Below are positions 19,126 to 57,789 of a DNA stretch of 61,883 nt, one piece after another (the first letter of the stretch is position 1; each line of letters opens with the position of its first letter). Under the pieces are notes generated by a model. The model saw only the letters and a list, made by a program, of their open reading frames with translations. It did no database searches and had not been told where the DNA came from. Location: the IMG/VR virus record IMGVR_UViG_3300044726_000045, positions 1 through 61,883 of that record; one strand, 5' to 3'. The position numbers and the translations under genes were made by a program. Source of the stretch: a virus (lineage: Duplodnaviria > Caudoviricetes).

Positions 19126-19154
19126 ATCATACACGCATGCAATCTGTTTGTCAA
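19126..19154 (-). promoter_or_regulatory. Sigma70-type promoter
   Basis: TTGACA-17-TATGAT. Confidence 0.75.
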
Positions 19155-19435
19155 GAGGGTTTAGCGGGTGACTGTGCTCTGGCTATCTGGAGCCGCACCC
19201 AATCTGGGACGTCTTCACATTCCTCGGGGGTAGCCGTTCGCACGGTACCATCTTCCTGCCACACACCAATTGACCAGCAATAAACGCAGGCCGTTAAGTC
19301 ACCGGGCTGAAGCATGGATTCACCGGGGAGTGGTGGGGTATTCATCACACCTGTGACGGCATCGATCTTCCGACCACAGACACCACATCGATGCTCCACC
19401 AGTCTGGCTTTGCCCACCCACACGTGCTCAGTCAT
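19151..19435 (-). CDS. Small Zn-binding hypothetical protein
   Basis: CGVC...PGD...CVYC. Confidence 0.65.
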   Translation of the reverse strand: MTEHVWVGKARLVEHRCGVCGRKIDAVTGVMNTPPLPGESMLQPGDLTACVYCWSIGVWQEDGTVRTATPEECEDVPDWVRLQIARAQSPAKPS

Positions 19436-21807
19436 GGTGACCTCTTGAACTTTTTCACCTCTCCCCAGTTCGGCCCTATCTTAGCATCGGCTGCAAACTT
19501 CAACTGTGGATTCCACCCCACCTTTTCGAAGGGTAGGTTCTCCATCTGGTCTATCTGCCGGATAACAATCTCCTCGACCAAATCCTCGGGCACGTAGTTC
19601 AGAATGGAATCATGACAGGCTCCAAAGCATGGTGCGATAGCTGCGAGTCCAGACTGATGTTCCAATGCGATGGTCCACAAGACCATATCAGTCAGGCATC
19701 CTTGCACCGGACTATTGATCGCCTGCCGTTCCGCCTTCGCGGCCACCTCACGGTTGGGTGACTTAATCAATGGCAGATGGCGAATCCTGCCAAGCGGAGT
19801 GCGGACTTGTTTGTGCTGTCTCGCCTGATCCACATACACTCGATGGTACACCAGCAACTTCGGATACTTCTTGAAGAACGTCTCTCGGAACTCGTGCGCC
19901 TCATCCCACGTCAACGTCACGCCGTAATTGGACCGGGCGTAGTTCACGAACCCATCTTCCTTCATACCAAAGACCAAACCAAAGTTACCAGCCTTGCCAA
20001 GCTGCCGGGTCTCTTCGAACGTGTGCGTGTCCGTCTGCTCCAGCGCCATCAGCGCCTCATACGTGAAGCCAGCAAATGGTGCGGCGGTGTCGGCGTGAAT
20101 GTCCTTACCCGATTTGAACACCGCAATCATGTTGTCTTCGTGCGCGATGCACGCGATGACTCGTAGTTCCCCCTGCCCGTAGTCCCGTTCCACCACCACG
20201 TAGCCCGGTGGGGCGGGGAAACAGCGCCTGATACGCTGCGCCCACTTCGTGTGCTTGGGCACCGTCTGGAAGGCCGGATCTTTACAGGACAACCGACCCG
20301 TCTTGGCCCCGCCTTCATCCTCGTCTCTATTACCCACGAACAGATAATACGTGGGATGAAATCGACCATCAGATCGGAGATGGCTCAGGAAGCCTTTGAC
20401 GTAGGTGTTGTACGTCTTCATCACGCCGCTGTCTTCTCGGATGAGGCTGATAAACTCCTTGGCCTTCGGGTCATCGGAGAACATCTCCAGATGCTCCATG
20501 GCCGTACTCGGGCGTTTGATACCGTCCTTGTCGTCCTTGGCGGTATACATCTTGGGCTTCAAGTTCAATCCCATGGGGGAGAACATGAAATCCGTGAGCA
20601 TGGCGGCTTTGGTGAGGTTCATTCCACCGGGTTTCGATGGGTCACCATGCTTCACATAGATGCGGCCACCCATGATCTTGACGGCTTCTTTCACGAGTCG
20701 TGCGTGCTCTGTCTCCAGATCGAACTTCAACTGCTCGTAAGCGTCCTTATCGATCAGGATGCCACCCTGCTCCACCTGTTCGAAGGCTCTCGATGCTGGG
20801 TGCAGAATGTTCACGTAGAAGCTGGTCAGCCTCTGGTCTCTCAGCAACTCCTTCTTCATGGCGTCAGCCACCTGAAGGTCGGCATCCACGTCGCCACCCG
20901 CATAAGGGAGTAACTGGTCTGGAGGTACTTGGTCCATCCGGCCCTTGTCCACGGTCCTATCGAACACGTCTGAATACCCGGCCAGCGATGGCACGTAAAT
21001 CTTGGTATGCACATCGAGCGCGTTGCTGCGATTCTCATCGAGCAAGCTGCCCACGATGGTGGTGTCGAACTTGAAGTTCGTGCAACTGATTGCAGCACGC
21101 TTCCACAGCCAGTGCAGGTCGTACTTGAAGTTGGCTCCCTTCATCTTCACCATGTCCGACCGCAACAGGAATTCAAGCTGCTCCCGCAAGAACGGATCTT
21201 GAAGTCGTTCTGTCTCATGCTGCCGGGACGTGAACCGGATGACCGATGCCTTCCCAGCCTCACAGGTCGCCTGTATGGTCACGATGTAGGCTCCGGGGTA
21301 GCTCAGGGTCGGTAGGGCGTAAGGGTCCAGTCCCAGCGTCTCCAAGTCCTTGGTGACGTCCACCGGCTCCCCAGACGCCTTGTAGCGGGTCTCAATAGCC
21401 TCACAGAGACCGGAGAAGTCATGGACATAGGTGTAAGCCCCATAGATCGGGGTCCACTTCCCTGTGAGACAGAATCGAATGGCGAGGGTCACATCGGTCA
21501 ACAGGTCCACGTAGTACCCGTGGTCGATATCCCCAATCTCAGGGCTGTAGGACACCAGCACCGGCACGCTGCCCAGCATCACGGGCAGAGTCCGGTAGGA
21601 CGTGGTGGTCCTATTCTTGGCGAGTAGCTTGTTCTCTTGGAGCTTCTTGAGGGAGTCTGACCCCAGCGCGAGAATGACCGTGGTGTCTGATGGAACGCTG
21701 TAGTCCGAGACGACGGTGATGGGTAACTCTTGGACGGATCGTAGGATGGGTGACAGAACCGCCAGTGTCTTGGCCGATGGTGTCTTGGTCCAGATGGTCA
21801 ACAGCAT
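19432..21807 (-). CDS. polA: Family A DNA polymerase with 3'-5' exonuclease and degenerate UDG-like N-terminus
   Basis: Exo DLET, NFKYD, YAGGD; TGRLS; motif A DYGQGELR; motif B KAGNFGLVFG; motif C HDS. Confidence 0.95.
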   Translation of the reverse strand: MLLTIWTKTPSAKTLAVLSPILRSVQELPITVVSDYSVPSDTTVILALGSDSLKKLQENKLLAKNRTTTSYRTLPVMLGSVPVLVSYSPEIGDIDHGYYVDLLTDVTLAIRFCLTGKWTPIYGAYTYVHDFSGLCEAIETRYKASGEPVDVTKDLETLGLDPYALPTLSYPGAYIVTIQATCEAGKASVIRFTSRQHETERLQDPFLREQLEFLLRSDMVKMKGANFKYDLHWLWKRAAISCTNFKFDTTIVGSLLDENRSNALDVHTKIYVPSLAGYSDVFDRTVDKGRMDQVPPDQLLPYAGGDVDADLQVADAMKKELLRDQRLTSFYVNILHPASRAFEQVEQGGILIDKDAYEQLKFDLETEHARLVKEAVKIMGGRIYVKHGDPSKPGGMNLTKAAMLTDFMFSPMGLNLKPKMYTAKDDKDGIKRPSTAMEHLEMFSDDPKAKEFISLIREDSGVMKTYNTYVKGFLSHLRSDGRFHPTYYLFVGNRDEDEGGAKTGRLSCKDPAFQTVPKHTKWAQRIRRCFPAPPGYVVVERDYGQGELRVIACIAHEDNMIAVFKSGKDIHADTAAPFAGFTYEALMALEQTDTHTFEETRQLGKAGNFGLVFGMKEDGFVNYARSNYGVTLTWDEAHEFRETFFKKYPKLLVYHRVYVDQARQHKQVRTPLGRIRHLPLIKSPNREVAAKAERQAINSPVQGCLTDMVLWTIALEHQSGLAAIAPCFGACHDSILNYVPEDLVEEIVIRQIDQMENLPFEKVGWNPQLKFAADAKIGPNWGEVKKFKRSP

Positions 21808-21934
21808 GAATGTCCTGCACAATCAGCGTCTTGCGACGTGATGCTTTGATGTATGCGTGAGCTTCTTCAGGAGTCAAGAAATTCGCCATCCGACACCACC
21901 GATGGGCAGTGTTAATCACAACCCCACCGGAAAA

Positions 21935-22345
21935 TCATTTCAACGCCTCATCATATCCCGAGTCTGACCCAAACTTGATCCGCTGCCACTCCGGGTCTCT
22001 CCAGCGGAAGACGGCCACGATAGCAGGCTTGATTTCCTGTATGCGAACCTTCACGCTGAGTGCGACGAACCCTGTCTTCTCTCCGCACTCCTTGAGCTTG
22101 GCTTCGTTCAGAACGAACAGCCAGCACTCCTTCTCCTTGATGATGGCGTAGAGACGGAGCTTCTTCATCACCGTCACCCAGAACCCAAGCTCCGTGTTCC
22201 CCAACAGGTCCGACTGCACCTCGACGGGCATATCCAGCCGCCATGGTCCCATCCGGAGTGTATGCACCTCGTTGGCCTTCAGTCCGCTGTCCACCGCGTA
22301 CAGCGTGACGCCCAGTGTATCGGCGGCAAAGTATCCAAGGTTCAT
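21935..22345 (-). CDS. Hypothetical protein
   Basis: 136 aa, coupled, GAGGAG RBS. Confidence 0.65.
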   Translation of the reverse strand: MNLGYFAADTLGVTLYAVDSGLKANEVHTLRMGPWRLDMPVEVQSDLLGNTELGFWVTVMKKLRLYAIIKEKECWLFVLNEAKLKECGEKTGFVALSVKVRIQEIKPAIVAVFRWRDPEWQRIKFGSDSGYDEALK

Positions 22346-22569: not shown

Positions 22570-22871
22570 GACAACTCCAATGTAATGGTCTCTGGCAACT
22601 CGACAATCTTCATGTGGAACAGGGGCTGGCCGAGAAACGTGGCATCGAACTCCCATTCCTTCTCAGCCACCGACACACAGATCCAATCAATGTCCACGTC
22701 GATGGCCGGGAACAGCACGCTGCACCGGATATCCCCCACCTTGACCGAGCGAAGAAGCTCCAGTTCCGTCTTGGCCGCTGGAGCATCCCGCCGCATCATG
22801 TCTCGGGCGATGGCGGTCACGACTTGCCGCCAATCACCAAGTCCGCGCCGTTCACGACCACCGCCTTCCAC
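22566..22871 (-). CDS. Hypothetical protein (true start probably near 22820)
   Basis: Coupled ORF. Confidence 0.55.
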   Translation of the reverse strand: MEGGGRERRGLGDWRQVVTAIARDMMRRDAPAAKTELELLRSVKVGDIRCSVLFPAIDVDIDWICVSVAEKEWEFDATFLGQPLFHMKIVELPETITLELS

Positions 22872-23860
22872 GCGATGCCCGTGCCCATCAGGAAGGCCCC
22901 GATGACTCGCGGAAGCGGCACGTCACCCGCGTCGAAGTGGTAGCTGCCGTATTTATGGCTTGGCTTCATCTGGACGCCTGACTCTTCCAGCTTCTTCAGT
23001 TCTGCGGTCGGATTGTCGGTCCACTCGGCACGAATCGAGATCCCACCGGTCTCATACAACCGGGCGGCAACCTTCACGTGCTCCGTCAGCGCCACGCAGT
23101 AATACACGCTGCCACTGCTCGTGCCATGGACCTTCTGGCCCAACGCCTTCGCGTCCTTCAGGCTGATCACCGCGTCCACCGGCTTCGCCGCGAACGCCTG
23201 CGCCAACCCCTGCACCGATGCCGTCGCTGATGCCATCTTACCGGTCAGGTCGGCAATCACCTCAGCCGAAGGAGCGCCCGAAGGAACTAGCAAAACCTTC
23301 CCATAGGCCGCTTCCAACTTCAACTTGACGTTGAATGCTTCCGTCGCCAGCGGATACGTCTTCAGATACTGCGGTGTCCCTGCGAGAGCCGCCTGCGCCG
23401 TTTGCTTGGCGAGAAGCAGACTCGCACCCGTCACCGTCTGAATCGCTTTGATGAGCATCAGCAGATGATCTTTGTCGCCCCCCGTCAGCACGACGGTCGT
23501 CAGTTCGCCTGCCGGTGTTTTCGGTAGCCCACCACCGAGGGCCTGTGCCAGTTTGGGCGTCATCGCAGCCACCGACACGTCGATGGTCTGGTAGAGCTTC
23601 GACACCCAATCCGAGATCAACGTGCGATTCTGTTCGGCCACCGCGAAGTCCACCGTATGCTTCATCAGCGCCGTGGTCCCCTTCGTCAGCGACACCGAGT
23701 ACTGGGCGTCCTTGTACTTGGCCTTGAGACTCAGCATATGGGTTTCGAACGTGACGCCTGCGGCAACCAGCGCCTTGACCTTGGCAGTCACGTCGTGCCC
23801 CGGCCCGAAGACTTTTGCAAAGAACATCAATTGAGCTTCCTGATTCAGAATAAGAGCCAT
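22817..23860 (-). CDS. Protein with an internal ribosomal bL12 C-terminal-like domain
   Basis: VVLTGG...LIKAIQTVTGASLLLAKQ...P..LK...EA...K.KLEAA.GKV resembles the bL12 CTD. Confidence 0.7.
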   Translation of the reverse strand: MALILNQEAQLMFFAKVFGPGHDVTAKVKALVAAGVTFETHMLSLKAKYKDAQYSVSLTKGTTALMKHTVDFAVAEQNRTLISDWVSKLYQTIDVSVAAMTPKLAQALGGGLPKTPAGELTTVVLTGGDKDHLLMLIKAIQTVTGASLLLAKQTAQAALAGTPQYLKTYPLATEAFNVKLKLEAAYGKVLLVPSGAPSAEVIADLTGKMASATASVQGLAQAFAAKPVDAVISLKDAKALGQKVHGTSSGSVYYCVALTEHVKVAARLYETGGISIRAEWTDNPTAELKKLEESGVQMKPSHKYGSYHFDAGDVPLPRVIGAFLMGTGIAWKAVVVNGADLVIGGKS

Positions 23861-23902
23861 GTTTTTCTACCCCACTCCCTTGGGCACAATGTTACGGTCT
23901 AC

Positions 23903-23931
23903 AGTCTACCAAAGACCCCCGGATTTGTCAA
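23903..23931 (-). promoter_or_regulatory. Sigma70-type promoter
   Basis: TTGACA-17-TAGACT with TG extension. Confidence 0.75.
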
Positions 23932-24633
23932 TTACCGCTTTTTGGCCTTCCACAAGCTCCGAGCCGAAGGCATCGGGCTGAACTGCTTGGTCTTCGCCGT
24001 CACCCCTTCGGGTGGAATCTGCTTCACCTTGGACTCAGGCAACTGCTGGTACTGAGTCGAGGACGATGCCGGTCCCAGTGAATGCCACTTGCCATTCCCA
24101 TTGCCGCCGCTCTTCGTCCCGGTCACCTCAGTCACGCCGTAGTGCTTCATCAAGAACTGCACTTGAGCCTTGGACTCCACCGCCTTCTTGCAGTAGTGCT
24201 TCCGGACCCACTGGATCGCGTCCTTCTTCCCCGTCAGTTCCGCCACGATGGCTGAGATCACGATCCCCGTGCGACCATGACCACCCACGCATCCGACATG
24301 CACCGTCTTGCCGTCCTGCAATTGAGTGCAGAGCCACGTCACCATCTTCTTGAACCGTGACGTGTTCACCGGGGCATTCATGTCCTGAATGCTGTAGTGG
24401 ATCTCCACCACCCCGTTCGGCTCCCATGGGTCCGACGACTTGCCGCTGGTGCTGCCGCTCTGCAATGACACATACACGTCGGCCTTCTTGATGGCTGGAT
24501 AGCTTGCACTCCCACCCACCAGCGTCCCCTTGCCCAGCTTCAGGGCTGGGTGCGACTCGTAGCACCGGATCGGCATCTCGGTGCCGCTGAAAGCGTCCTT
24601 GCTACTCTTACTGAACGTGTCCCACAGGGCCAT
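23932..24633 (-). CDS. Cys-dependent dual-specificity/tyrosine phosphatase
   Basis: IQDM acid loop, VHVGCVGGHGRTG (Cx5R), AVES..Q. Confidence 0.9.
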   Translation of the reverse strand: MALWDTFSKSSKDAFSGTEMPIRCYESHPALKLGKGTLVGGSASYPAIKKADVYVSLQSGSTSGKSSDPWEPNGVVEIHYSIQDMNAPVNTSRFKKMVTWLCTQLQDGKTVHVGCVGGHGRTGIVISAIVAELTGKKDAIQWVRKHYCKKAVESKAQVQFLMKHYGVTEVTGTKSGGNGNGKWHSLGPASSSTQYQQLPESKVKQIPPEGVTAKTKQFSPMPSARSLWKAKKR

Positions 24634-24634
24634 C

Positions 24635-25726
24635 TTAGTTCTCCACTCTGACTACGACATTCACGACTTGGCCCGGAAACACCTGAAACGTGCCTGTCAC
24701 CTTGACCTTCTTACCACCCAGCGTCGTCATCACCGATGGTGTTGCCTTCGATGGTGTCGCCGTCACCGACGACGTCTTCATCTTCGGCTGCTTCTGTGCA
24801 GCAGTCTGCTTGTGATACTTGTTCGGGTTGCCAGCCTTGTCAGCCGCTGGACGCATCTCGTCAACCAGCTTCCAGTCCACGTATCCCTTGATCTCGTGGG
24901 GCTTGTGCTGCTTGAGCAGATTCACCGCGTTGATGGCTTCCGGCGTCTTGTGAACGCCCATCGCATTCGACTCCAGCATCAGGTCAGGCAACTGGCCGCT
25001 CCGCTGCACGTCGAGAATGGTCATGAAGTGATTGTCGTACATCGTGTACATCATGCCCTTGTTGAAGATGGGTCCATTGTTATGCGCCAATGTGTAGGCC
25101 GTATCGACCATCATCTCCATCGAGGACACGCCGGTCAGATACGCCACCACCGCATCGGCCACCTGACCCCATGGGCCACCACCGTAACCACCAGACCACG
25201 AGCCATGATGATAGGCGTAAGACAACGCCTTCGCGTAATGCCCCACCGGCAACTCGGGTGGCTCCTTCATGTAGGTATCCACCGCCACGGTCTCGTTCCC
25301 GTTGCTGCTGATCTTCTTCAGGTAATCCACCGCCTTCGCGCCGTACTCCAGCTTGATCTTCGACCAGACCGGTGCTGGCGTCGAACCCGTCTTCAGGTGA
25401 CGCATCTCGCGGGTCGTGATGGACAGAATGTAGTGCAGCATCCGTTCGCCCTGCTTCATGCAGACGTCCGTGTAGGTCGCCATGATTTCCTGCGCCCACG
25501 CTGGCATCGGTTCGTTCTCGGTGAACGACTTCCGGACAACACTCGCGCAATGGTTCAGCGTGTAGAACGTCACCGCGTCATCATTGGGGCTGGTCTGTCC
25601 GCAGTTCTTGCGGTATTCCAGCGTCGATTTGCTGAACACTTCGGTCGGCAGATCCGCCAAGTCATGCAGGTGCGTCTGCGGGGCTGCGTTCCAGTGCGCC
25701 AGTGTGTTCTTCGGGAAAAACTTCAT
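24635..25726 (-). CDS. Hypothetical protein between the two phosphatases
   Basis: 363 aa; motif-like REMRH, GYGGGPW..VA, D....AHNNG..FNK; AAGGAG RBS. Confidence 0.85.
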   Translation of the reverse strand: MKFFPKNTLAHWNAAPQTHLHDLADLPTEVFSKSTLEYRKNCGQTSPNDDAVTFYTLNHCASVVRKSFTENEPMPAWAQEIMATYTDVCMKQGERMLHYILSITTREMRHLKTGSTPAPVWSKIKLEYGAKAVDYLKKISSNGNETVAVDTYMKEPPELPVGHYAKALSYAYHHGSWSGGYGGGPWGQVADAVVAYLTGVSSMEMMVDTAYTLAHNNGPIFNKGMMYTMYDNHFMTILDVQRSGQLPDLMLESNAMGVHKTPEAINAVNLLKQHKPHEIKGYVDWKLVDEMRPAADKAGNPNKYHKQTAAQKQPKMKTSSVTATPSKATPSVMTTLGGKKVKVTGTFQVFPGQVVNVVVRVEN

Positions 25727-25761
25727 GGTCCGCTCACTCCTTGAGAAATTCGACCTACCCT

Positions 25762-25790
25762 AGTCTGGCACAGGTCTAGACGTTTGTCAA
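25762..25790 (-). promoter_or_regulatory. Sigma70-type promoter
   Basis: TTGACA-17-CAGACT with TG extension. Confidence 0.65.
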
Positions 25791-26318
25791 ATGGGCCTGT
25801 TTGCCACCCACCCGCTCTTCAGGCTCCACTGGCAACCGGGTCAGGTTCGTCTTCCAGAACTTCAGCCACGCCCACCGCCTGACCAGCTTGATCTTCCGCC
25901 GCTGCCGGGGCGTCACCAGAAACCGCTTCACGAACTCGTACTGGTCCTTCGTCTCCACGGCATGGGCGTAATAGGTCGCCCGTACGAACTCCACCGGCTT
26001 GGCCACCCCGAACGCCTTCGCCAGTATGGCCAAGAACAGCCCCGTGCGCCCCTTGCCGCCCATGCAGCCCACGTAGATGGGTTCACCGGCCAGCATCAGG
26101 TCCAGCGCCTTATCCAGCCCCCTGTAGAGCGTCAGGCGGTCAGGCACGCTGAAGTCCTGCGTCGGGATATCGACGGCACACGCCTGCTTGATTTCCTTGG
26201 CCATCTTGACGCCCTTCATGGTCTCCGGGCAGTCCATGAACGGACCACCAGTCACCACGAAGAACTGCCGCTTCCACTTGCTACCGGGGTCTAACGGAAT
26301 TTGTAACTGGCCCAACAT
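25776..26318 (-). CDS. Cys-dependent dual-specificity/tyrosine phosphatase
   Basis: IPTQDFSVP, YVGCMGGKGRTG (Cx5R), AVET..Q. Confidence 0.9.
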   Translation of the reverse strand: MLGQLQIPLDPGSKWKRQFFVVTGGPFMDCPETMKGVKMAKEIKQACAVDIPTQDFSVPDRLTLYRGLDKALDLMLAGEPIYVGCMGGKGRTGLFLAILAKAFGVAKPVEFVRATYYAHAVETKDQYEFVKRFLVTPRQRRKIKLVRRWAWLKFWKTNLTRLPVEPEERVGGKQAHLTNV

Positions 26319-26351
26319 GACGCCTCACTCCTTGAGAAAAACTGACTCCTG

Positions 26352-26381
26352 ATCCTACACCACTACCCAGACGTTTGTCAA
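26352..26381 (-). promoter_or_regulatory. Sigma70-type promoter
   Basis: TTGACA-18-TAGGAT. Confidence 0.6.
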
Positions 26382-26701
26382 GATACCGCGTTCATCGCCG
26401 TGGCGGTCTGATCCTGCACCGCTCTCGATACCTGTCCCGACCAGCCGCACTGACGGCATCCTTCACCGTCACACGCCTCGTGCTCTTCCAGCATGCGATC
26501 CTGACCTCGACCAATCTCCATCAGTTCCACACGCTGCATGTCGAGCAACACATCACCCTTCCGCACGAAGAGCCACTGAAAGTACCGCAAGTTGCATCCA
26601 CGCAGGGACGTAAATGCAGCGGCTCTCAGCATCATCAACAGTTCATCAGGCGAAATCTTTTCCGCCTGCACGACCTTCAGAACTTTCGTGCTGATCCTCA
26701 T
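26378..26701 (-). CDS. Hypothetical protein with a C-terminal Zn-finger-like motif
   Basis: HEACDGEGCRQCGWSG. Confidence 0.7.
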   Translation of the reverse strand: MRISTKVLKVVQAEKISPDELLMMLRAAAFTSLRGCNLRYFQWLFVRKGDVLLDMQRVELMEIGRGQDRMLEEHEACDGEGCRQCGWSGQVSRAVQDQTATAMNAVS

Positions 26702-26964
26702 CGTCGCTCACCTTTCGTTGCCTCTTCCACACGAGAAATTCGAATCGACTTGTCCGCATGGAACGCCAACCGGTTGCCGCCAATTCCAGACTGCACACGG
26801 ACACCCGGCAGAATCTCCGTCGCCTGCCCTTCACTGATGACGATCTCATCTCCACGATCCACCGTCACCACCACGACGTTCGGGTAGACCAGTGCTTTCA
26901 CTTGCACCATGTGTCCACCCACCAGAATCTTGCTGCCGACACTCACGCCAATACTCAGGGCCAT
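26698..26964 (-). CDS. CsrA/RsmA-like RNA-binding protein with insertion
   Basis: N-terminal L.....GSKILVG and C-terminal RLAFHADKSIRISRVE resemble the two ends of CsrA. Confidence 0.55.
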   Translation of the reverse strand: MALSIGVSVGSKILVGGHMVQVKALVYPNVVVVTVDRGDEIVISEGQATEILPGVRVQSGIGGNRLAFHADKSIRISRVEEATKGERR

Positions 26965-28937
26965 TACTGCACCTCTCCGTTCCCGATTAGTTGCAGCGCC
27001 TGACTGACGCTGATGATCGACTTCGAACCCGCGAGATACTTACCGATGGACACCACCTTGATGGCACCCTCAGCCTGCTTCCACGCCAGCACCTTCTTGA
27101 TGGCCGGGTCGTTCACGTCAAGACCTTCCATCACAATCTCGTGGTCGCTCATGACGATGGACCGAAGGTCACTCCCCGCAGCCACCCGAGTAAACGATGA
27201 CGTGTGGTCGGCCTTGGCAATCAGCACCAGCCGCTTGGCAAGGTTCTCAGGAAGCGCAGAGGCCAGCCAATCCAACAACCTCTGTGCATGATTGTGCGCC
27301 GACAGGATGCTCAGATACCGTTCCTCTTCAGCAGACGGCACCAGATCCAGATAGAGCCGGTTCACGACCTTCAGCGTCTCCACAATCTTCACCGCTGACG
27401 CAGGCACGTTCAGCACCTGATCACCGAGATACAGCAGAGCTTCGTTCAGGGGCTTCTTCGGCGTATCGAAGATGACCGGGACGACGCCCAAGGTCTCATA
27501 GACCAGCGCGTTGAAATCCTGAACCAGTCCGTTAGCCGAGCCGCCGACAGTCGGTACCTTCTCGGTCCAGATCCGGCCCGTCGAACCGTCCATGCTCAGC
27601 ACTTCGATATCCTTGAACGACTCCACATCCTGTCCGACACCCACGATGCAGGCGCGGTCCATGCCACGCGCCACAACCGCCGCATGGCTCGTCAGACCAC
27701 CCACCATCGTGATGACTCCCCTCGCCGCATTCATGCCAGCGATATCATCGGGCTGCGTTTCCTTCGTCACAAGGATGCAAGGTTCCTTGCAACTGATTGC
27801 ATCCTGACGGGTGAACACCGGCTTGCCGCTCACGACACCCGAGCACGCCGGAATGCCTTGGAATGCCGCCTGCTTCGTCCACTTCGGGTCCAGCGTCACG
27901 GTCTGGGCCAAGTCAAACTGCTTGGCCGATACACGCTTCACCGCAACCTTCGGCTCAATCAGTCCCTGCTTGGCCATATCCACGGCAATCTTGATCGCTG
28001 CCATGGCTGACCGCTTGCCGGTCCTGACTTGCAGCAGGTACAGCTTGCCGTCCTGCACCGTGAATTCGATATCAAGCATCTCGCGCTTCAAGTTCTCCAG
28101 CTTGAGCACCTGACTCAGCAGTTCATCGTGAACCTGCGCGTTCCAGTCCTTCATCTGGTCCAGCGGCAGGGGCGTCCGGATGCCTGCCACGATATCTTCG
28201 CCTTGCGCGTTCGGCAGGAATTCGCCGGTCACTGCCATGCCGCCCGTGTCAGGGTTGCGCGTGAAGAGCACGCCCGTGCCAGACTGGTCATTCAGGTTCC
28301 CGAAGACCATGGCCTGCACCGTGACTGCCGTTCCCCACTCCCGGTCGTAGCCGTGCATCTTGCGGTATTCGTTCGCCCGATCATTATCCCACGACTTGAA
28401 GACCGCTTCGATGGACCCCAGTAGCTGCGCCTTCGCGTTCGGGAACTCTTCCCCGGCATGCGCCTGATAGCCGTCCAGCGCCAGTTTCAGGCCACCAGAC
28501 AACGACTCCTTGCGAATGCCCTTCACCACCGAGCCATACATCGACACCAGACGGTGGAACGAGTCTCCAAAGCACTTCGGCCCGAGACGTTCGATCCACT
28601 GCGGGATATTGCTGCTATCGAGACCGACGTTCAGGATCGTGTCCATCATGCCGGGGCACGAGACACGCGCACCAGAACGGACAGAGAGCAACGGCATGTA
28701 GCCGAAGTGCGCTTCCAGCTTCGCCAGATATTCCGGCAGAGCCTTGGCAATCTCCTTCATGGTGGTCTTGGGCTTCTTATCGTAATCCGCCCACACACTG
28801 GTCGGAATGACGAACCCCGGTGGCACCGGAACGCCCTCATTGGCCAACCATAGAAGTCCAACACCCTTGCCCCCGAGCAATTCGGTCGAACCCTTCGTCA
28901 GCGTGTCTTTGTCTAAGCCGAACGTGTAAAAGTCCAT
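26964..28937 (-). CDS. ppdK: PPDK-like dikinase: ATP-grasp and phospho-His swivel domains, canonical PEP/pyruvate barrel absent
   Basis: LLGGKG, VPPGF, LSVRSGA..S.PGMMDTILN, QAMVFGN, TRNP, NAQGED, DIEFT, LLQ.R, GGLTSHAAVVARG; only ~190 divergent aa follow. Confidence 0.9.
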   Translation of the reverse strand: MDFYTFGLDKDTLTKGSTELLGGKGVGLLWLANEGVPVPPGFVIPTSVWADYDKKPKTTMKEIAKALPEYLAKLEAHFGYMPLLSVRSGARVSCPGMMDTILNVGLDSSNIPQWIERLGPKCFGDSFHRLVSMYGSVVKGIRKESLSGGLKLALDGYQAHAGEEFPNAKAQLLGSIEAVFKSWDNDRANEYRKMHGYDREWGTAVTVQAMVFGNLNDQSGTGVLFTRNPDTGGMAVTGEFLPNAQGEDIVAGIRTPLPLDQMKDWNAQVHDELLSQVLKLENLKREMLDIEFTVQDGKLYLLQVRTGKRSAMAAIKIAVDMAKQGLIEPKVAVKRVSAKQFDLAQTVTLDPKWTKQAAFQGIPACSGVVSGKPVFTRQDAISCKEPCILVTKETQPDDIAGMNAARGVITMVGGLTSHAAVVARGMDRACIVGVGQDVESFKDIEVLSMDGSTGRIWTEKVPTVGGSANGLVQDFNALVYETLGVVPVIFDTPKKPLNEALLYLGDQVLNVPASAVKIVETLKVVNRLYLDLVPSAEEERYLSILSAHNHAQRLLDWLASALPENLAKRLVLIAKADHTSSFTRVAAGSDLRSIVMSDHEIVMEGLDVNDPAIKKVLAWKQAEGAIKVVSIGKYLAGSKSIISVSQALQLIGNGEVQ

Positions 28938-28975
28938 GTTTTCCACCACTCCATTGGTCACTTCGAACTGCATCT

Positions 28976-29004
28976 ATGGTAGCAATTGGCCCCATGTTTG
29001 TCAA
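28976..29004 (-). promoter_or_regulatory. Sigma70-type promoter for the PPDK-like gene
   Basis: TTGACA-17-TACCAT with TG extension. Confidence 0.7.
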
Positions 29005-29073
29005 GCGCCCACCGCTGGGGGTCGAACCCAGACTGTTCCGGGAAGGCTACAGTGCGCCGTCGTCGGTGAGCGC
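29005..29073 (-). ncRNA. tRNA-like small RNA
   Basis: 10-bp closing stem GCGCUCACCG/CGGUGGGCGC, T-arm CUGGG-UUCGACC-CCCAG, ACUGU/ACAGU stem; no D stem or encoded CCA. Confidence 0.7.
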
Positions 29074-29080
29074 AACAATC

Positions 29081-29109
29081 AAGGTAACACAGGTCAATTC
29101 GTTTGTCAA
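29081..29109 (-). promoter_or_regulatory. Sigma70-type promoter for the tRNA-like RNA
   Basis: TTGACA-17-TACCTT; -10 ends 7 nt before the RNA 5' stem. Confidence 0.7.
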
Positions 29110-29339
29110 TAGAGCTTGCCGGGTGGGTGGTGTTCATCGGATGACACCCATGTGCCGCCCCACGTCTCCAACACCCAGTACGCCTTCCGAGCATCATCAG
29201 TAGGCGCGTAATGACTGTCCGGTGGTGGCTGCATCTCGGGCGCGTTCAACACCCGCTCCAGTTCAGCATTGGCCTGCACCCGCCACACTCCATTGTTCAC
29301 CGTCGCCTCTTCTCCAGATGGCAACTTGATCTGTATCAT
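29106..29339 (-). CDS. Small hypothetical protein coupled to the zincin gene
   Basis: 77 aa, ATGA overlap. Confidence 0.7.
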   Translation of the reverse strand: MIQIKLPSGEEATVNNGVWRVQANAELERVLNAPEMQPPPDSHYAPTDDARKAYWVLETWGGTWVSSDEHHPPGKLY

Positions 29340-30451
29340 CGGTACTTCCCGTGCATGATATCAAAAATCAGGTTGAAATGTTCGGGTCGGTTTCTGGCAA
29401 AACTCACCGGGTCCATGATGTATGCCTCCACCCCGGTGGACACGATCTCCGTGGCAATGTCTTCCCTGTAAATCTTGCCCGTGTATGGATCGAGAAAATT
29501 CCCACGCACAGCAATCTCGTCATCCTCTAATCCCGGCTTGATGGTGTTCAGCTTGTATACCTCACGTGGGGTGTTCGCTTGGCGTTCTCTGAAATCAATT
29601 GCAGCTTTCAACACCTCTGACCGTCGCATCTCGATGTGGTGCGCCACCTCGTGGTAAACCTGCCGCTCCAACTCATTCCCACCCGCGATGTTGACCCCGG
29701 CGATGTCGGCATTGGCACGTCCAGACGTCGCCTTACTCAACTTCAACGACACCGGAATGGAATACGTGCCGTCTTCATTCTGCACAAAGGGATTCTCACC
29801 ACCAAAAATCTTGATGATTTCGTCCAACTTTTCAGCCGGGAACTTCACAGGCTCAAAGGCTCCTGACCCATCAAACGCCCGGAAGACTTGCAAAGCCATC
29901 TTCGTTCGTGCAGACACCCCCGGATGCAACGGATTCTGTGGATTGTCTGTGAACATCACCTTCGAACGCATCTCGGGCGGCACCTTCAGCATCTCATGAG
30001 CCTGCCCCAAAAATTTCCTTTGACGCTCCGAGACCTCATTGTATTTACGATGGAAATCGTCTTCCAGCGCCTTGGCTTCTTTGTAGGAGTCGAGCTTCTT
30101 CGCTGCCGCACCATCGGGCTTCAGCGGCTTCTTCCGGTTCTTGATCTCCTCCGACCACACGGTCCACTTCTTGAGCAAGTCCACGCGAAGATGGTTCAGG
30201 TGAACTTCTTCCCGCGCTTCACGCTTCAGCAACGCCTGAAAGTCTCGACGCTTCTGCTCCAACGGAGACCGCGAACCGCGTGCAAACTGTCCTCCAGTGG
30301 TGGTGCCTTTGGGATCGCGTGGCTGGCTGGGGTCAAACTTCAGGATACGGGCATACGGCTCAACCGGGACTCGGAACACCGGGAACTCATTCCACATGAA
30401 TCGGTCGGCCCCTTCCGGCAACCGCTTCATCTTGATCATTTTCAGGGCCAT
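29336..30451 (-). CDS. Tagged zincin-like metallopeptidase
   Basis: KFDPSQPRD tag; YHEVAHHIE; YTGKIY...TEIVS.GVE. Confidence 0.75.
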   Translation of the reverse strand: MALKMIKMKRLPEGADRFMWNEFPVFRVPVEPYARILKFDPSQPRDPKGTTTGGQFARGSRSPLEQKRRDFQALLKREAREEVHLNHLRVDLLKKWTVWSEEIKNRKKPLKPDGAAAKKLDSYKEAKALEDDFHRKYNEVSERQRKFLGQAHEMLKVPPEMRSKVMFTDNPQNPLHPGVSARTKMALQVFRAFDGSGAFEPVKFPAEKLDEIIKIFGGENPFVQNEDGTYSIPVSLKLSKATSGRANADIAGVNIAGGNELERQVYHEVAHHIEMRRSEVLKAAIDFRERQANTPREVYKLNTIKPGLEDDEIAVRGNFLDPYTGKIYREDIATEIVSTGVEAYIMDPVSFARNRPEHFNLIFDIMHGKYR

Positions 30452-32403
30452 TACCGTTTCCCCTCACTACTGCCGCCGCCGATGTATTCCAGATAAACCT
30501 GAGCCACTTGCACCGGCTTCAACGTGGGATCACCCGTCTGGTAGGTATACCCCGGATGCACCTTCGTCACACGAAATCGTGCGCCACTACCAAGGAGAAT
30601 TTCACTCTCAGTTCGCCTGTCCTTGTCATCCAGATCCTTGGCATTGATGGTCGGAGTCTGCGTATAATCTGGGATCGTAAAATCTTCAACCTTCAACTTT
30701 CCGTCTGCCGTCCACTCAGGATGTTCGAACACCGCAGGATCTTGAACACGAGGAAACTCATAGCGCATCCGTCGAGCCGCTTCCACCGCTGCCACCTTGG
30801 TTCCGGCAGGTAACGTGATGTGGAACTGCACTGCCGTGCCCACTTCATCTTGATGTTTCGCTATCATGCCGGGTTTACTGCCATAGCGTTGGTACAGACT
30901 CTCCCACTTACCCAGTGCCGGATAGCTCTTCGCTCGTCCCCCCGCTTCCCCCAGCATCGTGGACGTGAAACCTTTCTCTTCATACACGGATGGCGGTTCG
31001 CCGTTCGGTCCCTCGTACTGCATGGCCTGTAACGATTCAAACGTCACACCGGGCAGATAGGCTCCACGAATCACTTGCACCGGTTCGTCCAACACCAAAC
31101 CACGATTAGCAATCAGGTCATCGAGATGGTTGGCTTTGTCCGTAATTTCAGTGAGTCGTTCCTCATCGAGCACTGGACCCTTTACCGCCCAGTGTGCCGC
31201 CATGTATCCCGGTCCACCCGGCGTATCCTTCGGGATGTTGTCGTAGCTGTATGAATAACGGAACTCTGGACCTTCCGGTGGAATCATCCTCTGGACGGCT
31301 TCACCATCGTCAGCGTCCTTAATTCTCTGGTGCTCCTCTGGCGTCAACGCACGGATGCGTGCTTCCTTGGTAGGTGCTTTACCTCGACGTAGTTCGTTGA
31401 TCTGGCGATACGTGAATCCCGCATAGCTGTCCACCACGTCCGCGTCTTTGCTGGTCAGCTTGGTCTTCGCCCACTCGGCCCCCGGTCCCTTCTCGTGCCA
31501 CTGATAGCCCTCTTCACTGCTGAAGGAGCGTCCCGTGGTCTTCGTCCACTGGCCTTGGTCATCACGCGGCTGACTCGGGTCGAACTTCCGTGCCATCAAC
31601 TTCTCAATGGCGGTAATCTTTGGATTGCCCTTGAAGGTCCACTTGCCAGATGGCTCCTGCGTCATGAACGACGTGATGTAGGGATAGGCCGACGCATCGG
31701 CTTGATAGAACGCCATCTGCAACGTCGTAAAGTCAGCCACGTCCATACCGACTCGGGTGGCCTTCTCCTGTAACTTCTTAACCACGTCCGCTTCTAACGC
31801 ACTGAACCCTTCATACCCACGAAATAGCGGCCCAATCAGGTCATGGTTCAGTAGTTCCGTAGCCAACGTGATGTCCTTGTCACTGAAGCCTTCCTTCCGG
31901 AGCACGTCCTGCATGATGGGGACGGTGAACTGGTGTTGCGCTTCTTTTCCCGCTCCGGACTCGATAGCCTCGGCCTTCCCGATATCGTGCAACGGAATCG
32001 CCGTCTCCATCAGCTTTTCAACGTCACTCCCAAATCGTTCGGAGATACCTGCCATCTCCTCGTCGGTAAGTTGCTTTTCCCACTCGCGGCCCACGTCCTT
32101 AGTATGGGCCTCGATACTACCCATCTCGGTATGTGTACTGCGTGGATAGTTCTGGGCCACCGCTGGATACTTGATCTTGAGCGTGGCCATGCGGTGTTTG
32201 ATGTTGGTCCAGCGTCCCTTGTCATCGCGTGGCTGACTCGGATCGAATTTCAATGCGGAGACATAGTCCCGCTTCAGGACAAAGCGGTTCTCATATTCCG
32301 TTAGCAGTTGGTCCCGCAGCACAACTACTCTCCGGTGATACGTGTTCGTGCCGCTTCCAACGCCGACGTAATCTTGTCCATGTCCATGACAACTTCCTGC
32401 CAC
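30451..32403 (-). CDS. Tagged HD-domain + VIP2-like ADP-ribosyltransferase
   Basis: Two KFDPSQPRD tags; LHDIGK..H..NHD..AD; Y....YRQIN..RRG, VIRG, EKGFTST, ESEILL..GARFRV. Confidence 0.85.
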   Translation of the reverse strand: MAGSCHGHGQDYVGVGSGTNTYHRRVVVLRDQLLTEYENRFVLKRDYVSALKFDPSQPRDDKGRWTNIKHRMATLKIKYPAVAQNYPRSTHTEMGSIEAHTKDVGREWEKQLTDEEMAGISERFGSDVEKLMETAIPLHDIGKAEAIESGAGKEAQHQFTVPIMQDVLRKEGFSDKDITLATELLNHDLIGPLFRGYEGFSALEADVVKKLQEKATRVGMDVADFTTLQMAFYQADASAYPYITSFMTQEPSGKWTFKGNPKITAIEKLMARKFDPSQPRDDQGQWTKTTGRSFSSEEGYQWHEKGPGAEWAKTKLTSKDADVVDSYAGFTYRQINELRRGKAPTKEARIRALTPEEHQRIKDADDGEAVQRMIPPEGPEFRYSYSYDNIPKDTPGGPGYMAAHWAVKGPVLDEERLTEITDKANHLDDLIANRGLVLDEPVQVIRGAYLPGVTFESLQAMQYEGPNGEPPSVYEEKGFTSTMLGEAGGRAKSYPALGKWESLYQRYGSKPGMIAKHQDEVGTAVQFHITLPAGTKVAAVEAARRMRYEFPRVQDPAVFEHPEWTADGKLKVEDFTIPDYTQTPTINAKDLDDKDRRTESEILLGSGARFRVTKVHPGYTYQTGDPTLKPVQVAQVYLEYIGGGSSEGKR

Positions 32404-35265: not shown

Positions 35266-36306
35266 TCATGCGATTTCAAACTGGCCCCACATATTGAGTT
35301 CGTCGGTGTTTGCCATCGCGTAGGGGGTGGTGCCGCTCCAGAGGCCCAGCTTTGCGACCGTGGCCTGATGGTAGAACACCGTGAACCTGTTGGCGTTGTC
35401 GATGCGGCCCATGCCGCGATAGGCCGCTGCGCCATCGCTTGCGTCGGAACCATGCGCGTCGATCATCGTGCCACCAGCTTGATTCATTGTGAGCGGGAGC
35501 GAGAACTGGAAGGCTCCGGTGCCGAAGGTGGTGGTTGACCCGCAATACAACCGGACGCGAACGAGGCAGAAGGGGCCAATCGGCAGGTAGCGCCCGATAA
35601 GCGCTCCGTTCCCAATGACCGGCTGCGTGCCGGTCGTGGTCCAGACCGGGGTGTAGCTGAGCCACGGCATCCCGTAGACATAGCCAGTGAGGTAAATGCC
35701 GGTGTTGCTCCAAAGGCCGTAGCTTGGGTGTGAGCCGAGATACCACGTCCCTTGAGCGACCCCCGGCGTATCGGCGCGACCGGGGTAGACAAAGCCATTC
35801 GGCTGGACGATCCCGGTGTTGAGCAGGTCTTTACAGCGAAAATTTGCATATAGCGTCTGATCCGCAAGAACGGATTCAAGTAAGGCTCCATTTGGCCGTA
35901 GCCCCGGTGACGCAGCGGTCTTGCCGCCAAATTGCAACACCTTCGCAGCTTCCCAATACGAGAGCGTCGAATTCCTGATCAGCTTGCCGGTCGTGCTGTT
36001 GAAGGTCGGGATCGCTTCATCGACAGCACCCGCAGGGCCAACCACATCGCCGCCACTACTCGTGCCCGGTATACCTTGCGGACCCTGAATACCTTGAATA
36101 CCTTGCGGACCCTGCGGACCTTCGGGGCCAATCGGACCTTCCGGACCTGTCTCACCCTGAATACCCTGAATTCCCTGCGGCCCAATCGGACCTTCGGGGC
36201 CTGCGGGACCAACTGGACCTTCAGGCCCCTGTGGACCGACTGGACCTTCGGTCTTCACATTCCAAATCGGCACCCATTCAGTTGTTGCGGGATCGGGACT
36301 CGCCAT
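35266..36306 (-). CDS. Collagen-repeat fibre protein
   Basis: About 20 GXY triplets; C-terminal W.SYTP.W...GNG...GRY...GSTT..G.G...FSLP domain. Confidence 0.8.
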   Translation of the reverse strand: MASPDPATTEWVPIWNVKTEGPVGPQGPEGPVGPAGPEGPIGPQGIQGIQGETGPEGPIGPEGPQGPQGIQGIQGPQGIPGTSSGGDVVGPAGAVDEAIPTFNSTTGKLIRNSTLSYWEAAKVLQFGGKTAASPGLRPNGALLESVLADQTLYANFRCKDLLNTGIVQPNGFVYPGRADTPGVAQGTWYLGSHPSYGLWSNTGIYLTGYVYGMPWLSYTPVWTTTGTQPVIGNGALIGRYLPIGPFCLVRVRLYCGSTTTFGTGAFQFSLPLTMNQAGGTMIDAHGSDASDGAAAYRGMGRIDNANRFTVFYHQATVAKLGLWSGTTPYAMANTDELNMWGQFEIA

Positions 36307-42680: not shown

Positions 42681-42919
42681 TGTCCACTCTCCTTTTGAAA
42701 TACGTCGATATGCACCAACGAAATATCCCGCACCACCAACTCTTTATGCACCGCTGTGCCACGCAACTCGTTCCTCATGACATCGGCCATCTTATACGCT
42801 TCGTGAAAACTACTCGCCACCAGCAACTGCTCCTCGCAGGGATCAGTCTCGACCTTAATGACGCCGTTCACTACCAGATCGAACGTGGCCATGTAGACCT
42901 GCACTCGATTGAACTTCAT
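42677..42919 (-). CDS. Hypothetical protein
   Basis: Coupled 80-aa ORF. Confidence 0.6.
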   Translation of the reverse strand: MKFNRVQVYMATFDLVVNGVIKVETDPCEEQLLVASSFHEAYKMADVMRNELRGTAVHKELVVRDISLVHIDVFQKESGQ

Positions 42920-43815
42920 CGCGCACCATCCATGTCGGCGGCATCCCTGAACCCGACGAACTGTGGGAAGCGCGGTTTGTCCTTGCCACCACTAGCAAAG
43001 AACTTGAACTTGACGATCTTGCCGATGTAGTTCCCGCCGTCATTCCAGATGGCCTGCCGCTCCACCAGCGTGCCGGTCGGACTCACCTTGTGGACGATGC
43101 CCGTCTCCAGATTCTTGACGAGGTAGGCCCCGAGCGTGCCCTTGGCGACCTTACCATCCTTGTGGCTACTCCGTGCCGTGTGGCCAAGCTCGTTCACGAA
43201 CGCAGTGTTCTGATTCGACTCCTGCTCGATCAGGTCGAGCACTTCGCCTTCACCATCGGTGAACCGCTTCATCTTGAGCAAGAAACCTTCGTTGCTCGTG
43301 GACCGGCCCTGCTTGTACGGACCCTTGGGACTCCGGATCATCAGACCCTCATATCCCAGTTCCACCGCCACCGCTTCCAGACTCTGGAGCACGTCCTGCG
43401 ACTCCACGAGATTGTGAGGAACCATCTGCACATACGGCAGACTGAGACCATCCACAACCTGTGAAGCCTCTGCCAGACGACTGGCAAACGGGCCTACCAT
43501 GAACTTGTCGAACACATGGAACACAAAATTTGGCTTGCCGTCCTGCGACATGACCGCACTCGACGTGACCCGGAACGCATCAGCCGCTGCCGGGTTGCCG
43601 ACGATCAACTCCCCGTCCAGCCCTTCCAGTTCCGGGCGGCTCAACAGGGCCTGCACATGCAGGTTGGCGATGGGTTTGAGACTGCGGCTCATGACCACGC
43701 CGCCTTGGATGGTGGCACGGATACCGTCGAGCTTCGGACTGGCAAGCACCGGGAACCGACCACTCGCCAACACGAACGGAGCCTCCAACTTGCCTGCCAA
43801 CATCGCTTTGAACAT
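42916..43815 (-). CDS. lig: ATP-dependent DNA ligase
   Basis: SPKLDGIR, LDGEL, FHVFD, YEGLMIR, LLKMK, PRFP.F; start moved to MFKAMLA with AAGGGAG RBS. Confidence 0.93.
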   Translation of the reverse strand: MFKAMLAGKLEAPFVLASGRFPVLASPKLDGIRATIQGGVVMSRSLKPIANLHVQALLSRPELEGLDGELIVGNPAAADAFRVTSSAVMSQDGKPNFVFHVFDKFMVGPFASRLAEASQVVDGLSLPYVQMVPHNLVESQDVLQSLEAVAVELGYEGLMIRSPKGPYKQGRSTSNEGFLLKMKRFTDGEGEVLDLIEQESNQNTAFVNELGHTARSSHKDGKVAKGTLGAYLVKNLETGIVHKVSPTGTLVERQAIWNDGGNYIGKIVKFKFFASGGKDKPRFPQFVGFRDAADMDGAR

Positions 43816-43930
43816 CAGACCCACTCCCTTGGGAAATATGAGAGGGGATATCAAGCTGCCCCTCATCAGCCGTCGCTCTCCTAATCTGCCCCGCGCATTG
43901 GCGACCGTCACGCGATGCCTCAACAGAACC

Positions 43931-43959
43931 AGTCTACCACCAGTCCTGCCATTTGTCAA
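43931..43959 (-). promoter_or_regulatory. Sigma70-type promoter
   Basis: TTGACA-17-TAGACT. Confidence 0.75.
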
Positions 43960-44917: not shown

Positions 44918-44936
44918 CCACTCAGGCGTTTGTCAA
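44908..44936 (-). promoter_or_regulatory. Sigma70-type promoter
   Basis: TTGACA-17-TAGACT. Confidence 0.75.
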
Positions 44937-47091: not shown

Positions 47092-47147
47092 GACCAGACC
47101 ATTGTCTCACACCAACCGGCGTTTGTCAAATCCCTGCAATCAAGTGC

Positions 47148-47750: not shown

Positions 47751-47795
47751 GAAACCATTGTCTCACACCAACGGGCGTTTGTCAAATCGCCCCTT

Positions 47796-48134: not shown

Positions 48135-48240
48135 AATGTTCGCTCCTCCATGAGCTACACACAGTGTCTCACACCCCGGCGAGTTTGTCAACTGCTGTTC
48201 ACAAACTGAACGATCTCAACCCTTCAGTTTATCACAATTT

Positions 48241-57785: not shown

Positions 57786-57789
57786 GTTC

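Follow-up and report, generated by a model that had tools for sequence, protein, structure and literature searches.

What does a pyruvate phosphate dikinase (PPDK)-like gene do in the replication block of a phage once its phosphoenolpyruvate (PEP)/pyruvate barrel is gone? The question is raised by the virus record IMGVR_UViG_3300044726_000045, a linear contig rated 54% complete, which we analysed over its entire length of 61,883 nt (hereafter the window). The open reading frames (ORFs) of the block are real and all lie on the minus strand, where they encode, in reading order, the dikinase (DIK), two small proteins (p88 and p107), a first phosphatase of the protein tyrosine phosphatase (PTP) fold (PTPa), a 363-residue protein (p363), a second such phosphatase (PTPb), p347, two small ORFs, p136 and DNA polymerase I (PolA). 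The original prediction held that DIK is not a carbon-metabolism gene and forms part of a split phosphotransferase, with p363 as a possible acceptor module, the phosphatases reversing or supplying the reaction, and a target among RNA, nucleotides or the translation machinery. The observations behind it were largely right, and its split-phosphotransferase reading is supported by the computations reported here: DIK is predicted to be the ATP-driven part of a conserved phosphate-transfer system of several proteins, the other half of which has a fold that we could not match. For the full reading, a two-subunit phosphohistidine dikinase with p363 on the acceptor side, accompanied by phosphatases and acting on a nucleotide- or DNA-linked acceptor, we see about an even chance.

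DIK is encoded at 26964-28973 (minus strand, 669 aa) and derives from PPDK. Its only Pfam domains are PPDK_N (PF01326, 135.6 bits) and the PEP-utilizers mobile domain (PF00391, 80.5 bits), the latter matched at residues 396-466 and hence central in the chain, and its layout comprises an ATP-grasp domain (13-360), a swivel domain with the phosphorylatable His430 (361-475) and an α/β C-terminal domain (476-669). The ATP-grasp domain and the GGLTSHAA phospho-His motif reported for it are indeed kept, the motif reading GGLTSHAAVVARG at residues 425-437. A profile of 23 close relatives (alignment A2, 61-76% identity) matches solved PPDK chains with an E-value of 2.6e-131 over query residues 9-472, the match ending at PPDK residue 522, and K36, R99, D301, E303, Q315, R317, T428 and H430, all invariant in A2, align with the ATP-site and His-site motifs, whose residues have known roles in PPDK. 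The AlphaFold model of DIK (mean predicted local distance difference test score, pLDDT, 73.2) superposes as a whole on PPDK 1kbl with Z 33.8 and a root-mean-square deviation (rmsd) of 9.7 over 603 residues (model 14-669, chain 7-873). By sequence, fold and the retained site residues, these two domains are homologous to those of PPDK (EC 2.7.9.1; 1kbl, 9pzl). Translation probably starts at M13 (ATG at 28937), since this residue is nearly invariant in A2 and its codon follows a conserved Shine-Dalgarno context, CAATGGAGTG, in nine of nine aligned relatives.

The remainder of the chain is different. Where PPDK carries a TIM barrel of ~340 residues, DIK has a shorter stretch of ~194 non-conserved residues, and the acceptor side is predicted to be taken by the separately encoded p363. 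The earlier description of some 190 unrelated residues in place of the barrel is supported by sequence searches: the last 200 residues (470-669) match no Pfam family at E≤10; a search of the window for PF02896 (the PEP-utilizers_C barrel) at E≤10 came back empty, while being positive in 14 of 14 control genomes; and hhalign gives the C-terminal alignment a probability of 0.07% against four bacterial PEP-utilizers_C barrels, taken from two genomes of a genome-contig scan. A comparison of 50 distinct phage DIKs shows at least 90% identity at 93 of 348 positions of the ATP-grasp domain, at 33 of 115 of the His domain and at 0 of 194 of the C-terminal domain, in which nine positions reach 60% identity. 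On TIGR01828 DIK scores 436.8 bits against a cut-off of 843.45. No signature of a functional pyruvate barrel was thus found at the C-terminus, which fits the proposal that DIK is not a carbon-metabolism gene. As the 1kbl overlay extends to the C-terminus of the model, the domain is possibly a decayed barrel remnant; the conservation pattern suggests that the acceptor site lies outside DIK.

Relatives of DIK were found by tblastn in 59 phage records, including phages of Vibrio, Stenotrophomonas, Rhizobium and Rhodobacter, the genera infected by the cultured relatives, and the annotated regions of DLP3, RHph_TM16 and PG28 have the same gene order. We assembled 68 loci, 65 from a scan of IMG/VR with the p363 alignment and three from GenBank, in which genes were called by phmmer. 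p363 is present in all 68, PTPb in 67, PolA in 65, PTPa in 64, and DIK and p347 in 60 each; the eight loci without DIK all have less than 2.5 kb of sequence upstream of p363 and are cut contigs. p363 has a conserved neighbourhood that includes the PPDK_N protein in 60 of its 68 loci, and the genes do co-occur in other phages: DIK, PTPa, p363, PTPb and PolA are found together in 55 loci, in one order and on one strand in 55 of 55, at sequence divergence down to 28% identity. PolA, a family A DNA polymerase with a 3'-5' exonuclease (19432-21822, minus strand), lies downstream of the block and follows it in every locus that reaches far enough (65/68). The block thus appears to be a core gene set in a very large siphophage clade. 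Near-identical DNA, judged by word share only, occurs in soil, sediment and groundwater metagenomes. A genome-contig scan for canonical PPDK sequences returned only three loci, two of them contigs of metagenome-assembled genomes (MAGs) with the same phage block and one with DIK alone. The latter, a Novosphingobium MAG contig (L071, 5926-8292), encodes a 789-aa ORF with PPDK_N and a mere trace of the His domain; neither p363 nor a PTP gene was found within 5 kb downstream, and the ORF may be a different or decayed relative. In some relatives, homing-type endonucleases (HNH_3, endonuclease VII) are inserted inside the block (L019, 4352-4795; L022, 8528-9004).

The protein that accompanies DIK so strictly, p363 (24635-25726, minus strand; PHROG 20946), is the predicted acceptor-side partner. 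Its motifs REMRH, YGGGPW and HNNGPIFNK, which had been called catalytic-looking, are real, being invariant or nearly so in 36 aligned relatives, and in 48 sequences an identity of at least 90% is reached at 37 of the 310 core positions. The invariant polar residues include H59, R95, R106, E107, R109, H110, E204, D208, H215, N216, K223, D239 and Q241, and G182, G183, W186, P219 and G244 are further invariants among the 36 members. Judged by these patterns, p363 looks like an enzyme. Its model is confident (pLDDT 91.2, predicted template modelling score 0.82) and consists of an all-α core (1-310), a disordered basic linker and a small β domain (332-360). The family is large: an exhaustive profile search gave at least 2180 clusters (50% identity) at E≤1e-3 and 625 at E≤1e-30, and a word-indexed search gave 573 relatives, of which the 120 listed all lack Pfam domains. 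A known fold for p363 was sought and not found. Foldseek against the PDB gave a best E-value of 0.42. With VIA-align, no chain among 48,161 reached Z≥5, the top Z being 4.0. The profile search against PDB sequences gave nothing below E 0.99, BFVD five unnamed family members only and the ESM Atlas no usable match; p363 belongs to no family in Pfam, NCBIfam or PADLOC.

We co-folded DIK residues 13-669 with p363 residues 1-320 in three runs, alongside three controls, using custom alignments. The interaction score ipSAE reached 0.87, 0.86 and 0.85, compared with 0.00 for the best of the three controls. In the calibration of the tool, 58 of 80 solved complexes reach the ipSAE mark, as do 2 of 110 mismatched pairs; here, these counts hold only roughly because of the custom alignments. 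The runs agree in at least 95% of contacts, with a partner pLDDT of at least 87. The DIK side of the predicted interface is made up of the phospho-His loop (424-437), linker helices and two C-terminal stretches, 500-560 and 644-664; the p363 side takes in the conserved N-terminal segment 1-34 together with residues 55-73, 86-97, 188-216 and 241-246, ranges that hold the invariant H59, E204, D208, N216 and Q241 and also P16 and Y55. The model supports binding of p363 by DIK and, together with the strict co-occurrence, the asymmetry in conservation and the presence of the phospho-His loop in the interface, the earlier idea of a split phosphotransferase with p363 as its possible acceptor module.

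A known system of related design is rifampin phosphotransferase, in which the ATP-grasp and swivel His domains are combined with a different module for binding the acceptor and which matches the DIK ATP-grasp domain structurally with Z up to 18.4 (5hv1, 5fbs). There, one chain also holds the acceptor domain, and the His domain stands at its C-terminal end (matched at chain residues 763-863), whereas in DIK the His domain is central and the acceptor module is predicted to be a separate protein of unmatched fold; on the rifampin phosphotransferase model NF041857, DIK scores 60.3 bits against a cut-off of 999.

Two phosphatases flank p363. PTPa (25776-26318, minus strand), a Cys-based phosphatase of the dual-specificity type (DSP), has a CX5R motif (YVGCMGGKGRTG; GCMGGKGRTG) and the conserved general-acid Asp in DFxxP, and scores 31.3 bits on PTP-SAK (cut-off 27). 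PTPb (23932-24633, minus strand) has the motif HVGCVGGHGRTG, scores 32.5 bits on Tc-R-P (cut-off 27) and carries an N-terminal extension with conserved Cys and His residues. Both pass the Pfam cut-offs for DSP-type PTP families and have the sequence features of Cys-based phosphatases: in 55 and 56 sequences, respectively, conservation is at least 90% for GCxGGxGRTG and the upstream Asp, and the AVETxxQ motif is kept. Among solved structures, they are closest to archaeal PTPs such as SsoPTP, to PTPMT1 and to receptor PTP domains. Two intact Cx5R phosphatases are therefore present here, as described, with Pfam support, but the pair is not universal: phage vB_VcaS_HC has a single, PTPa-like phosphatase, and in two loci (L045 and L046) only PTPb occurs, PTPa being truly absent and DIK abutting p363 across a 43-base gap. 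In most loci, the start of PTPb overlaps or abuts the stop of p363. The C-terminal parts of these two proteins (p363 ~300-363, PTPb ~170-233) share an arrangement, a low-complexity basic linker followed by a small conserved element, which in p363 is a β hairpin domain with G345 and R360 and in PTPb a P..S....W motif; these tails could serve docking or nucleic-acid binding. PHROG 17568, which holds both PTPs, is labelled "thymidylate synthase", as is DLP3 gp141 (L001, 11548-12324), a label that looks mistaken, since it does not fit the PTP-family Pfam matches.

The computations show which domains are present, that the barrel signature is lost and that synteny is strict, and they predict a DIK-p363 interface. 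To this we add a proposed mechanism in which ATP would be bound by the PPDK-type ATP-grasp domain of DIK and His430 on the swivel domain would be phosphorylated. The ancestral barrel would have decayed to a non-catalytic α/β platform on which p363 docks, its invariant polar pocket replacing the barrel and holding the acceptor to which the phosphate may be passed. PTPa and/or PTPb would hydrolyse what is formed, or else a related phospho-compound in that pathway, and translation of the operon is probably under the control of the CsrA-like p88. The most likely acceptor would be a (deoxy)nucleotide or a group linked to DNA, and it may belong to the DNA modification of these phages. We infer this from a core gene set with host-type promoters that always lies just upstream of a DNA polymerase, and two things only favour it over other acceptors: the fixed position beside PolA and the phenotype of DLP3. 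DNA of this phage resisted 15 of 15 restriction enzymes, and the modification was left undetermined by its authors (PMC7326821). DLP3 also has sugar-modifying genes and a glycosyltransferase.

Several points weigh against this reading. As p363 matches no known fold, its structure gives no pointer to nucleotide binding. The adjacency to PolA may be only the conserved genome architecture of the clade, and the restriction resistance of DLP3 could come from its glycosyltransferase and sugar genes instead. The co-fold score is the model's own confidence and no measurement, A2 comprises close relatives only, and on DIK the residues of the predicted interface show poor sequence conservation. Fusions of DIK with p363, for which the original prediction had suggested a search, were not found, although a length search of 2552 candidates is weak evidence; the six longer p363 members of the representative list are without Pfam domains. 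Both the conserved CsrA-like gene and the L12-like domain inserted in p347 point to RNA or translation, not DNA. As for the genes of known routes, a ThyA-type hydroxymethylase (PF00303) occurs in none of the genomes of five relatives, three of them rated 100% complete, to which that search was confined, and ThyX in one of the five. The dUTPase family (PF00692) had no match in the five relatives and the window, in a search that also missed the annotated dCTP deaminase of PG28; this Dcd-like gene recurs weakly in two other loci and is not conserved across loci. A route via 5-hydroxymethylpyrimidines or dCTP depletion is, on these ThyA-type, ThyX, dUTPase and Dcd results, not supported.

More specifically, and with a correspondingly low probability, DIK-p363 and the phosphatases may constitute an undescribed route of nucleotide or DNA modification, in which a group on a deoxynucleotide or on DNA, bound by the subunit of new fold, would be phosphorylated, thereby activated for substitution, and the product used by the adjacent PolA. 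The ancestral chemistry of PPDK would be in keeping with this, being the phosphorylation of an enolisable carbonyl oxygen, and the route would explain the restriction-resistant DNA of Delepquintavirus-like phages. Phages are known for thymidine hypermodification by a 5-hydroxymethyldeoxyuridine (5-hmdU) DNA kinase with aGPT-Pplase, and for the PurZ/DpoZ pairing. The idea is the same, a kinase gene next to that of a dedicated family A polymerase, its product priming a group on DNA or a nucleotide for later chemistry, and the likeness is one of description only; unlike in thymidine hypermodification, the enzyme here is a dikinase and not a P-loop kinase, and the ThyA-type hydroxymethylase is missing from all five relatives. 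If the acceptor is a nucleotide or DNA, the block would represent a new phage DNA-modification pathway with a new enzyme fold, and a concrete candidate for the restriction resistance of DLP3.

The alternative that survives best, though we hold it unlikely, is a regulatory histidine kinase in the manner of VadK (Rv1127c) of Mycobacterium tuberculosis: DIK would autophosphorylate and then phosphorylate, or bind in a phospho-dependent manner, p363 or another phage or host protein, the PTPs would reset the switch, and the output would be control of replication or translation. VadK is the closest characterised relative of DIK and equally a precedent for the two-subunit reading. This PPDK derivative, which lacks the barrel, autophosphorylates on His422 in an ATP- and Mg-dependent manner, acts via partner proteins and pulls down enzymes of the methylcitrate cycle (PMC13400623). 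DIK scores 429.1 bits (profile 16-461) on NCBIfam PRK05878.1 (NF004531; 534 positions, named "pyruvate, phosphate dikinase" by NCBI), which, from its length, we assume to be the VadK-type family; this is close to, and below, the cut-off of 456 bits. Both proteins would thus be barrel-less PPDK derivatives with separately encoded partners, with the difference that DIK has an extra C-terminal domain of 194 aa and resides in a phage replication block with p363 and the PTPs, whereas VadK works in bacterial carbon metabolism. The predicted place of p363 at the phospho-His loop, with invariant His and Asp residues as possible acceptors, would suit a switch, as would the CsrA-like and L12-like neighbours and the fact that PTP-fold enzymes classically act on phosphoproteins. 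Yet some 13 invariant polar residues spread over several helices of p363 resemble a ligand pocket more than a single acceptor site, a fixed core module maintained down to 28% identity is less obvious for a regulator, and the methylcitrate enzymes with which VadK associates have no counterpart here. If the two-subunit dikinase is true, then it would mean, together with VadK, that barrel-less PPDK derivatives repeatedly became trans-acting phosphotransferases.

We regard as improbable a reversible phosphorylation of glycans, in the style of glucan, water dikinase (GWD) or phosphoglucan, water dikinase (PWD) with SEX4/LSF2, directed at host glycogen, another polysaccharide or the sugars of phage DNA, with the CsrA-like protein reprogramming carbon storage. 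A dikinase paired with dual-specificity phosphatases parallels GWD and its partners SEX4/LSF2, CsrA regulates carbon storage, and relatives of this phage have glycosyltransferase and amino-sugar genes. What is common to the two systems is the logic alone, a His-relay dikinase with two dual-specificity-type Cys phosphatases, and homology was compared for the dikinase core alone. By definition GWD has its His domain N-terminal to the ATP-grasp domain, together with carbohydrate-binding modules; in DIK, the ATP-grasp domain comes first, no carbohydrate-binding module family was found, and the block has no glucan-hydrolase-like gene. Against glycans also speak the all-α p363 with its Arg, His and acidic invariants, and the location of the block beside PolA and not beside sugar genes; an auxiliary metabolic function is, besides, rarely so strictly conserved.

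The neighbouring genes had been taken as pointers to an RNA, nucleotide or translation target, and they bear on a further alternative: chemistry at RNA ends or on the translation apparatus, in which DIK-p363 would phosphorylate an RNA end or a translation factor, with the PTPs as RNA polyphosphatases or 3'-phosphatases, in RNA repair or host shut-off. p88 (26698-26964, minus strand) is a small protein with the motif RLAFxAPxxIxIxR. While p88 of the window has itself no Pfam match at E≤1, the same-position genes of four distant relatives score 30.8, 27.2, 26.0 and 17.3 bits on Pfam CsrA (PF02599; cut-off 27), so that two of four pass, and hhalign links the p88 family to that of the distant relatives with a probability of 99.6% (E 1.4e-24). 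The CsrA profile is matched in the C-terminal half only. The CsrA-like assignment made for p88 is thus supported by transitive homology at the level of the family, a member of which, p88-type or CsrA-matching, follows DIK in 52 of 60 loci. p347 (22817-23860, minus strand) had been described as bL12-like. It has a conserved C-terminal domain (~233-330; GTSxGSxY, SIRxE, YxSxH), for which neither a PDB profile search nor the ESM Atlas gave a lead, and its residues 74-189 match TIGR00855 with an E-value of 9e-7, at 29.3 bits against a cut-off of 84.4; on PF00542 it scores 17.5 bits against 25.9. The L7/L12-like domain is seen only in the clade of the window (~9 of 32 aligned p347 proteins). By these scores, p347 is best described as a protein with an inserted L12-like domain and not as a ribosomal protein.

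The tRNA-like RNA of the original prediction did not hold up. The stretch in question (29008-29070, minus strand), an acceptor-like stem with a T-arm-like hairpin in the spacer between two tandem promoters, scores 25.7 bits on the tRNA-like mascRNA model (gathering score 42.5) and has a fold z-score of -1.29; ARAGORN found no tRNA gene, Rfam gave no match at gathering score, and a similar stretch is kept in one of eight relatives, so that the element is probably non-functional. With the L12-like domain clade-specific and the tRNA-like element not conserved, the pointer to translation is weaker than had been claimed. Some PTP-fold enzymes are RNA 5'-triphosphatases, such as baculovirus BVP and PIR1/DUSP11, and the window encodes an ATP-dependent DNA ligase (42916-43959, minus strand; PHROG 114). 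The block, on the other hand, is without an RNA ligase or nuclease and the CsrA-like protein may simply autoregulate the operon, so we put little weight on RNA chemistry.

Hardly credible, finally, is a true PPDK acting as an auxiliary metabolic gene, the reading of phage genome papers, which list the dikinase as an auxiliary glycolytic gene (PMC9229204, for example) and annotate it as PPDK in DLP3, PG28, Virtus and others: the overlay on 1kbl agrees with it, and the missing PEP-utilizers_C match, the hhalign result, the lack of conserved positions in a C-terminal domain shorter than the barrel and the score far below the TIGR01828 cut-off contradict it. A literature search found no published account of the mechanism of the phage block.

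The block and its surroundings carry further features. The five σ70 promoters that had been proposed for the block were recovered in part. A promoter consensus scan gave four sites, compared with 2.6 ± 1.7 expected, while the nonamer TTGACAAAC has 10 minus-strand copies in the window against 0.54 expected, always on the coding strand: at 19146-19154, 25782-25790, 26373-26381, 28996-29004, 29101-29109, 44928-44936, 47121-47129, 47777-47785, 48183-48191 and 49105-49113. Four of these copies lie within the block (at 29109, 29004, 26381 and 25790), where a related promoter-like site, TTGACAAAT, is found at 23931. In the 19-33 kb stretch, the nonamer is usually accompanied by a TGnTAnnnT box and a CAAGGAGTG-type leader, although at the 25790 site the filter used found no TAnnnT box. 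From this pattern, TTGACAAAC looks like the mark of a phage-specific class of host-type promoters. Two tandem σ70-type promoters, each a nonamer with a TGnTAnnnT box, precede the dikinase together with its leader (28976-29109, minus strand), and promoter-like sites from the consensus scan lie upstream of PTPa (26352-26381, minus strand, with TTGACAAAC) and of p347 (23903-23931, minus strand, with TTGACAAAT). Both TTGACAAAC boxes of the dikinase leader are, like its Shine-Dalgarno context, invariant in the nine aligned relatives. With up to one mismatch, CAATGGAGTG has 10 matches in comparison with 6.3 expected, and was rejected as a special site; as it resembles the general Shine-Dalgarno context of this phage, a CsrA-like binding site there stays only an idea.

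Of the remaining small proteins, p107 (26378-26701, minus strand) is zinc-ribbon-like, with conserved NRRYxxWLF and CxGxGCxxCGWxG motifs, and p136 (21935-22345, minus strand), a conserved protein between p347 and PolA, occurs in 29 of the 68 loci. Upstream of DIK, two large proteins (29336-30451 and 30451-32403, minus strand) share repeated FDPSQPRD(D/P)KG motifs and are found in close relatives only; the 650-aa protein among them has an ADP-ribosyltransferase match below threshold (21.3 bits versus 23.4). These proteins resemble multi-domain injected "polyvalent" phage proteins. Farther upstream, the collagen-repeat proteins at 35266-36306 and 36309-39089 (minus strand), one of which contains a phage tail collar domain, are probably tail fibres, and a protein at 59336-59899 (minus strand) matches part of PHROG 111, labelled "DNA methyltransferase". 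The terminase large subunit (55815-57887) lies ~27 kb from DIK, while in Vibrio phage PG28 the two are ~2 kb apart.

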